IMG/VR virus record: IMGVR_UViG_3300050014_001197
Coordinates: 1 to 64,000 of that record
Strand: one strand, 5' to 3'
Length of the DNA stretch: 64,000 bases
Origin: a virus
Under the pieces are notes generated by a model that searched no databases, was not told where the DNA came from, and saw only the letters and a list, made by a program, of their open reading frames with translations. Below are positions 3,442 through 3,516 of this stretch, piece after piece; the stretch's first letter is position 1, and each line of letters starts with the position of its first letter. Position numbers and translations under genes: made by a program.

Positions 3442-3516
3442 GGTCCATTAGCTTAGTTTGGTCTAAAGCTCTGGCTTCTAAACCCAGGATCGTGGGTTCG
3501 ACTCCCACATGGACTA
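3442..3516 (+). tRNA. tRNA with anticodon CUA (amber suppressor)
   Basis: Cloverleaf: acceptor ggtccat/atggact (G1-U72), D-stem gctt/aagc with GG in the loop, anticodon stem ctggc/cccag, loop ttCTAaa (U33, A37), 4-nt variable loop, T-arm gtggg-ttcgact-cccac, discriminator A. Confidence 0.6.

Follow-up and report, generated by a model that had tools for sequence, protein, structure and literature searches.

An amber-suppressor-type tRNA probably paired with a TAG-gated peptidyl-tRNA hydrolase gene in standard-code giant phages

Why should a phage that uses TAG as an ordinary stop codon carry a transfer RNA (tRNA) whose anticodon would read it as an amino acid? The question is raised by a tRNA gene with the anticodon CUA in a 64,000-nt stretch of viral DNA (positions 1 to 64,000 of IMGVR_UViG_3300050014_001197, hereafter the window), for which an initial annotation, made from the sequence alone, had proposed either tolerated or exploited TAG read-through or an action on host or late-gene expression. 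We favor a different answer, to which we assign a probability of about 0.62: a functional suppressor tRNA is paired with a neighboring peptidyl-tRNA hydrolase gene, PTH2, that is gated by TAG, the two being parts of a small, conserved translation module and not signs of a changed code across the genome. Gene calls throughout were made by simple open reading frame (ORF) heuristics, and the elements concerned are the following.

2523..2882, plus strand: PTH2-type peptidyl-tRNA hydrolase gene (PF01981, phrog_1866), read through an in-frame TAG
2529..2531, plus strand: the conserved in-frame TAG, codon 3 of PTH2, with leader and body in one frame
3047..3397, plus strand: p116, encoding a 116-aa protein, between PTH2 and the tRNA
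3442..3516, plus strand: tRNA with anticodon CUA, of the amber suppressor type (ARAGORN, Rfam RF00005)

The ORF finder calls only 2547..2882 for PTH2, with a TAA stop at 2880..2882. Read from further upstream the gene starts ATG (2523) AAA TAG CTT AAT CAG AAA TTA ATG GTA ATC ACA AGA, with the TAG 0.9 kb upstream of the CUA tRNA. The product matches Pfam PF01981 over residues 3-97 (34.8 bits, gathering cut-off 23) and falls below the NCBIfam equivalog cut-offs (28.5 vs 126), so that we regard it as a divergent member of the predicted peptidyl-tRNA hydrolase family. No upstream ORF in the window reads into the TAG, which leaves two readings of ATG-AAA-TAG, as a mini-ORF of two codons or as the genuine start of PTH2. 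Among 23 PTH2 orthologues found near the tRNA, 21 likewise have an ATG, 0-7 codons and then TAG; the codon that follows is CTT, GTT, GTA, ATT, ATA, ACA or AGC, and most of the 23 have no ATG, GTG or TTG between the TAG and the conserved strand ...KL.VITRRDL. The Lys-Leu codons after the TAG vary synonymously (AAA TTA, AAA CTT or AAA CTA), and such synonymous change means that the codons after the TAG are translated.

A wider survey gave the same picture. A PTH2 profile search of IMG/VR returned 326 relatives, the best 80 of which comprised 64 distinct N-termini. The TAG leader is present in 58 of these 64, each with an in-frame ATG 1-7 codons before the TAG (1-4 in all but one), and 54 fit a strict definition in which the TAG lies no more than 8 codons from the conserved PTH2 body with no ATG between. 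A CUA tRNA is found within 3 kb of 48 of those 54 genes, often 110-270 nt upstream or 0.3-2 kb downstream; conversely, 32 of 34 IMG/VR loci with a p116 homologue have a CUA tRNA within 4 kb. PTH2, p116 and the CUA tRNA remain clustered in at least three gene orders. The leader also occurs in five published huge-phage genomes (LR756500, LR756501, LR745206, LR756504 and LR756502), two of which have a CUA tRNA within 2.5 kb, while LR745208 (LR745208.1, locus L126) and Lak-B4 (L128) have no leader stop and a UUA (ochre-type) tRNA beside PTH2. The linkage recurs in mycobacteriophages of Cluster C, whose PTH2 homologue is 38% identical: in Alice, ATG TAG GTG precedes the annotated hydrolase gp150 in frame and a tRNA-suppressor(cta) is annotated 250 nt downstream, and in Phabba, GTG TAG GTG precedes the hydrolase and ARAGORN finds a CUA tRNA 130 nt downstream, at a site annotated as tRNA-Arg(tct).

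In two of the relatives TAG appears inside PTH2 as well. Locus L117 (IMGVR_UViG_3300026159_000555) has a second in-frame TAG (L117:2410) at a site that is Glu in 27 of 29 homologues, and PTH2 of LR756501 also holds an internal TAG; both would fit active suppression in those phages. Three other genes of the window have an ATG-x-TAG upstream (10410, 13069 and 50370), with leaders that are not conserved, and no further window gene with a conserved TAG leader was found. The initial annotation was right about the type of tRNA and overlooked the sole conserved in-frame TAG, codon 3 of PTH2, which is most likely what the tRNA reads.

The tRNA itself is genuine. ARAGORN places it at 3442..3517 with anticodon CTA, and RF00005 aligns end to end over 3442..3516 (model positions 1-71, 57.8 bits vs a threshold of 29), which bears out the canonical cloverleaf with the loop uuCUAaa first proposed. 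The same alignment disposes of the concern that a covariance model might put the anticodon elsewhere: the loop has 7 nt and no intron, with CUA at 34-36. That loop, U32 U33 C34 U35 A36 A37 A38 (UUCUAAA), has both U33 and a purine at 37, and the cloverleaf includes G18G19 in an 11-nt D loop, a TTCGA T loop, a 4-nt variable loop and discriminator A73; CCA is not encoded. The anticodon stem is not an intact 5 bp, there being a C31.C39 mismatch at its closing pair (4+1 bp), and the first acceptor pair is a G1.U72 wobble.

Two special classes of tRNA were considered and rejected. A tRNA-Pyl has a short D loop without G18G19, a 3-nt variable loop and a 6-bp anticodon stem; the ARAGORN label of tRNA-Pyl reflects the anticodon only, given the 11-nt D loop with GG, TTCGA, the 4-nt variable loop and the 4+1 bp stem found here. 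A bacterial initiator tRNA with a CUA anticodon does not fit either, as only two of the three G-C pairs are present (G29-C41 and G30-C40), 11:24 is C-G and not A11:U24, and the 1:72 position, mismatched in initiators, is G.U in the window while relatives have G-C. Among phage tRNAs the CUA tRNA has no close paralogue, and blastn against GenBank phages gave weak generic tRNA matches only.

Two features flank the tRNA.

3413..3435, plus strand: terminator-like hairpin (terminator scan), 6 nt upstream of the tRNA
4292..6019, plus strand: gene for a Ro60/TROVE-like RNA-binding protein (Pfam TROVE 5e-6; phrog_850 9e-26), 0.8 kb downstream of the tRNA

The arms of the hairpin match the acceptor-stem sequence of the tRNA (GTCCAT / ATGGAC), and the segment 3400..3436, just upstream of the tRNA, consists of two direct copies of AGCATGGACA followed by the hairpin. 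The repeats and hairpin may have been left behind when a tRNA was replaced, or may act as a signal for processing.

Conservation of the tRNA was followed through both of its neighbors. Of 21 loci fetched via the TROVE protein (62-92% identical), 16 contain the CUA tRNA; four of the remaining five have too little upstream sequence, and one (L013) lacks the tRNA despite 6 kb upstream. Its position is kept, directly after the orthologue of p116, while the tRNA bodies have diverged strongly among relatives, some to 40-65% identity. In the cloverleaf of 12 orthologues, pairing is kept in 98% of cells and compensatory substitutions appear at 16 of 21 pairs, while the CUA core never varies. All fetched loci of related giant-phage contigs together yield 82 distinct CUA tRNAs, 60 of which have the anticodon loop CUCUAAA, the loop context favored by efficient amber suppressors, and six the UUCUAAA of the window; the discriminator at position 73 varies among A, G and U. 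Because a C31 mismatch at 31:39 recurs in 20 of the 82, and also in the tRNA of Alice, the mismatch in the window is a recurrent lineage variant and not a sign of decay. The initial identification of an amber-suppressor tRNA holds on cloverleaf, on CUA in the proper loop and on conservation with compensatory change, and these comparisons support a bona fide suppressor-type tRNA under purifying selection.

We propose the following mechanism, the simplest reading, for a module that runs, on the plus strand, PTH2 (2523..2882), p116 (3047..3397), tRNA-CUA. Most relatives have no start codon other than the ATG before the TAG, so that a ribosome that initiates there would have to read UAG as an amino acid to make full-length PTH2. 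The neighboring CUA tRNA would supply that decoding, and PTH2 output would then be proportional to active suppressor. PTH2 in turn would recycle tRNAs from short peptidyl-tRNAs, a by-product raised by read-through and by very short reading frames, so that the purpose of the coupling may be to scale tRNA recycling to drop-off and non-stop translation, or to exert feedback on the suppressor pool. The leader UAG always lies within the first few codons of PTH2, which is the zone of most frequent peptidyl-tRNA drop-off and the one where minigenes act (PMC2490762, PMC10192219), and failed read-through so early would waste no more than a di- to tetrapeptide. Elsewhere the phage would keep the standard code and tolerate some read-through at its few TAG stops. 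The sequence comparisons show the tRNA and its conservation, the conserved in-frame TAG, the lack of alternative starts and the physical linkage in several phage lineages; charging of the tRNA, its decoding of this UAG, insertion of a particular amino acid and the usefulness of the coupling are what we infer.

Several observations weigh against this proposal. In the window, initiation at ATG 2547, six codons past the TAG, could yield a PTH2 only slightly shorter with no need of suppression, and in the mycobacteriophages the TAG is followed by GTG, the annotated start, so that suppression is not strictly required there. Loci L115 and L119 keep the CUA tRNA though their PTH2 has no TAG, and three of the huge-phage genomes with the leader have no CUA tRNA within 4 kb; because of these cases the pairing of tRNA and PTH2 must be described as strong, not absolute, and further targets of the tRNA are conceivable. 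Shared ancestry within one large phage group could account for much of the linkage, the mycobacteriophages being the only clearly independent case. Lastly, the window is about 64 kb of a larger genome, which could hold further TAG-containing genes elsewhere.

The downstream starts in the window and in Alice and Phabba, and the tRNAs of L115 and L119 beside PTH2 genes without a leader, also speak for a rival account in which ATG-x-TAG is a minigene or start-stop leader that controls PTH2 without any tRNA, through termination, drop-off and re-initiation or through a downstream start, and the tRNA is nearby only because translation genes cluster. Minigenes of two to eight codons do cause peptidyl-tRNA drop-off and so produce the substrate of Pth (PMC2490762, PMC10192219). 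Such a leader is weakened by the lack of downstream starts in most of the genes: no ATG occurs from the TAG to the first conserved strand in the 54 strictly defined genes, ATG, GTG and TTG are absent from that interval in all 58 TAG-leader genes except L191 and L192, and the codon after the TAG is usually no start. It is weakened further by the choice of stop, since TAG occurs 58 times and TAA once (L175, on a 675-kb contig) even though TAA accounts for about 73% of the stops used by the clade. The cognate CUA tRNA within 3 kb of 48 of the 54 also counts against it. For the window (ATG 2547) and the mycobacteriophages (GTG) a tRNA-independent leader is possible; overall we consider it unlikely.

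A second alternative is that many genes outside the window, whether late, structural or for lysis, use TAG as sense, as under code 15 in Lak and crAss-like phages. It draws on surveys that tie suppressor tRNAs to late-gene recoding (10.1101/2021.08.26.457843; PMC13037316), on the second in-frame TAG of L117 at a conserved Glu, on a view that covers only about a fifth of the genome, and on the nearest GenBank records of the capsid protein, which are TAG-recoded Lak megaphages (40-42% identity) together with 460-735-kb 'huge phages'. Two structural genes lie at the end of the window.

60768..63302, plus strand: Peptidase_S77 prohead protease-scaffold gene (T4-type)
from 63377, plus strand: gp23-like capsid gene (T4-type)

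General recoding was tested as the gain in ORF coverage when TAG is taken as sense, over the window and about 1.2 Mb of relatives. In the window, plus-strand coverage rises from 0.60 to 0.63, a gain identical to that with TGA as sense, whereas it rises from 0.63 to 0.94 in 50 kb around the capsid gene of Lak-A1, which shows that the test has power. The gaps between window genes conceal no TAG-interrupted frames, and neither the start of the capsid gene nor the protease-scaffold gene has an internal TAG. No overall TAG-specific gain appeared in about 40 capsid-region, 21 TROVE, 36 p116 and 80 PTH2 loci, or in a further 10 kb along a 405-kb relative, and a search among homologues for TAG opposite sense codons, with off-frame shadow ORFs filtered out, returned only the PTH2 cases. 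The suggestion of Lak- or crAss-style late-gene recoding therefore fails for the window and for the capsid and protease neighborhoods of about 40 relatives, where Lak-A1 is positive. Neither the window nor these relatives recode TAG in general, PTH2 being the sole exception, and for recoding outside the DNA covered here we see very little likelihood.

Four candidates for recoded or read-through genes were set aside along the way. A run of TAG after 63533 is out of frame, as the true capsid gene starts at 63377 and has no TAG. A read-through fusion of 15158..15733 with the radical-SAM gene 15740..16663 is a case of same-frame neighbors, of which the window has one TAG junction and eight TAA junctions. 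Every TAG-joined ORF pair inspected in relatives proved to be two genes, each with its own ATG. The gain in ORF coverage that made L119 look TAG-recoded came from junk ORFs in a tRNA cluster.

Stop-codon usage, on which the initial annotation had relied, likewise turns out to be unexceptional. The contexts it quoted are correct: 33253..33882 ends TAG TAG TAA, 22300..22518 ends TAG TAA, and TAG terminates 60768..63302, 55435..55620 and 46020..46253. In the window TAG closes 11 of the 111 plus-strand ORFs that reach 40 aa, and 4 of 76 ORFs that reach 80 aa; with the latter minimum, de-duplicated genes across the clade stop at TAA in 615 cases, TGA in 163 and TAG in 64 (7.6% TAG), and Tenacibaculum phage PTm1, a standard-code jumbo phage with 31% GC, has TAG in 5 of 55. 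A TAG share of 5-10% is normal at this GC content. The supposed backup stops are at chance level, a second stop directly following TAG in 8/68 cases (12%), TAA in 76/645 (12%) and TGA in 19/170 (11%) across the clade, where the distance to the next TAA or TGA is not shorter after TAG and is, if anything, longer. The notion of TAG read-through thus survives in part: the tRNA is evidently tolerated with TAG still an ordinary stop, while the backup stops cited for read-through are only chance. No meaning can be given to the TAG stop of the prohead protease, since it is not conserved and nearly all relatives use TAA; programmed read-through of the protease-scaffold gene was rejected on the same ground.

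A third possibility is that the tRNA acts mainly on the host, by read-through of host TAG stops that would disturb or reprogram translation in the host, or in coping with loss of release factor 1, with PTH2 clearing the resulting peptidyl-tRNAs. It is compatible with the pairing that we favor. Phages that keep the tRNA use the standard code and offer it hardly any targets themselves, and XacN1 and Atu_ph07 carry suppressor tRNAs for which no phage target was identified (PMC5852040, PMC6102473). By itself, a host target leaves the TAG at the start of PTH2 unexplained, and as the main role of the tRNA it seems to us a slim prospect. A function other than decoding, with the tRNA a Ro60/TROVE RNA ligand like the bacterial tRNA-like Y RNAs or else a decaying pseudogene, is scarcely credible, for although the tRNA has a TROVE gene 0.8 kb downstream of it and a gene for a vault-like protein 1.7 kb upstream, and the window copy has C31.C39 and G1.U72, the cloverleaf with G18G19 and TTCGA is full and canonical, the CUA anticodon in its suppressor-optimal loop is the one invariant element of tRNA bodies that have otherwise diverged widely, 20 of the 82 tRNAs share a mismatch at 31:39, Rfam gives no Y-RNA family match, and linkage to the TROVE and vault-protein-like genes is confined to closer relatives, whereas that to PTH2 is general.

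The setting of the module is that of a large, AT-rich phage. The window has 31.7% GC, its plus strand is almost wholly coding, and an INPHARED search gave no near match to it at the DNA level. Because IMG/VR relatives are found on contigs of up to 405 kb, the window is taken to be about one fifth of a jumbo-phage genome, probably 300-400 kb in full. In addition to the protease and capsid genes, T4-type genes in the window include a gene 30.3 homologue, an endonuclease V and a ligase. ARAGORN finds 16 tRNA genes, all on the plus strand, with GIY-YIG homing endonucleases dispersed among them. Four such endonuclease-like genes are present on the plus strand (17446..18183, 33253..33882, 45058..45834 and 46597..47247), and three of the four sit between tRNA genes; 33253..33882, with its TAG-TAG-TAA end, is thus a mobile-element gene. 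A borderline tRNA-like match at 38108..38183 on the plus strand (Rfam 29.1 bits vs a threshold of 29), without an ARAGORN call, adjoins two tRNA-Gly genes and may be a degenerate tRNA. Other translation-related genes are a Thg1-like tRNA-His guanylyltransferase (51775..52518), a tRNA-Ile with anticodon UAU (46404..46476) and a radical-SAM protein (27897..29069) that is lysine-2,3-aminomutase-like (EpmB-like) and whose gene ends TAG TAG. The largest non-coding gap of the window, 1.2 kb at 24855..26054, contains no credible ORF, whichever strand is read and whatever stop codons are assumed, and an Rfam search of 24800..26100 matched no family. A nicotinamide adenine dinucleotide (NAD) salvage set comprises NAD synthase, an isochorismatase-type nicotinamidase and nicotinate phosphoribosyltransferase (11571..12506, 13069..13704 and 18188..19372); NAD salvage genes are known from gut jumbo phages (PMC11662467).

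Closer to the tRNA, p116 has no Pfam, PHROG or NCBIfam match. It has 71 homologues with the conserved motifs QRK and LRxMYAAYGLxRGK, and its predicted model is all-helical, with three helices (pLDDT 86.7) and no significant fold match. The TROVE gene is preceded by a 284-nt AT-rich non-coding stretch (3767..4050) with hairpins and a terminator, which could be the source of an RNA partner for the TROVE protein; Rfam found nothing credible at 3500..4350, and at 3300..3700 RF00005 only, without a Y-RNA family. TROVE is also a domain of the vault component TEP1. On the far side of PTH2, at 32..1759 on the plus strand and 1.7 kb upstream of the tRNA, a gene for a 575-aa vault-like protein has matches to Pfam MVP_shoulder (1.7e-26), Vault_3 and Band_7, and phmmer aligns it directly with MVP structures from rat and human (E 2e-17, over residues 461-784 of MVP); it is kept beside the TROVE gene in closer relatives. 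Such a resemblance to the eukaryotic major vault protein, near a TROVE protein, is unusual in a phage.

How does the proposed coupling compare with known systems? One parallel is the autoregulatory gene of release factor 2 (prfB), which has an early in-frame UGA and a +1 frameshift and senses its own product. Both are translation-factor genes with an early in-frame stop whose own expression would report on the termination or decoding machinery, whereas in PTH2 the stop is a UAG in the first five codons, no frameshift is involved, and the decoder would be a separate adjacent tRNA gene. ATG-AAA-TAG is formally also a two-codon minigene, of the kind known from lambda bar and other two- to eight-codon minigenes, placed directly before a peptidyl-tRNA hydrolase gene; the known examples are free-standing and toxic when Pth is limiting (PMC2490762; PMC10192219), whereas here the minigene continues in frame into the hydrolase gene and has a cognate suppressor tRNA as its partner.

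Recoded phages are well known to carry suppressor tRNAs (10.1101/2021.08.26.457843; PMC13037316; PMC9523058). With the Lak and crAss-like phages (TAG = Gln, code 15) the window shares a phage CUA tRNA in a standard-code region, low GC and a capsid protein 40-42% identical to that of Lak; the capsid region is heavily recoded in Lak-A1 and standard-code here, where PTH2 has the sole conserved in-frame TAG, and a scan of roughly 35 of the larger window proteins turned up neither a release factor nor a tRNA synthetase. Other cases are cultured standard-code jumbo phages that likewise combine suppressor tRNAs with a peptidyl-tRNA hydrolase and Thg1: Xanthomonas phage XacN1 has two CUA tRNAs, and in-silico read-through of its amber stops gave no target (PMC5852040), while Agrobacterium phage Atu_ph07 has a UCA suppressor tRNA (PMC6102473). 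Those studies sought C-terminal extensions, whereas the candidate target here is an amber codon at a gene start, conserved across many phages; the hydrolase homologue of the XacN1-related Xoo-sp13 is without the leader. The Cluster C mycobacteriophages (Bxz1, Alice and Phabba) have a similar arrangement, with PTH2 after an in-frame start-TAG and a CUA tRNA 130-250 nt downstream, though they are an unrelated GC-rich lineage with actinobacterial hosts and have no p116 homologue. Searches of the full-text literature, incompletely covered, found no paper on a phage PTH2 gene that opens with an amber codon or on a pairing of PTH2 with a suppressor, which is absence of evidence only. While the tRNA is ordinary for its kind, a TAG-gated PTH2 module would be classed as new within phage stop-codon recoding. 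We would give even odds to the stronger statement, that giant phages and Cluster C phages share a previously undescribed circuit in which an amber codon within the first five codons locks PTH2 and an adjacent suppressor tRNA unlocks it, in genomes that otherwise keep the standard code.

Practical consequences follow for annotation and experiment, as gene callers miss or mis-start PTH2 in many phage genomes and the hypothesis is directly testable in cultured mycobacteriophages. Phage suppressor tRNAs are usually taken as a mark of genome-wide reassignment, or are left unexplained in standard-code phages. If the pairing proposed here is real, PTH2 output would track suppressor activity, acting either as a sensor that matches recycling to the read-through load or as feedback that keeps suppression tolerable. 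It would explain suppressor tRNAs without an apparent target in standard-code phages such as XacN1, so that orphan suppressors would gain a concrete target. Recoding could then be confined to a single regulatory codon, and such a state would be a plausible first step toward full recoding in evolution.

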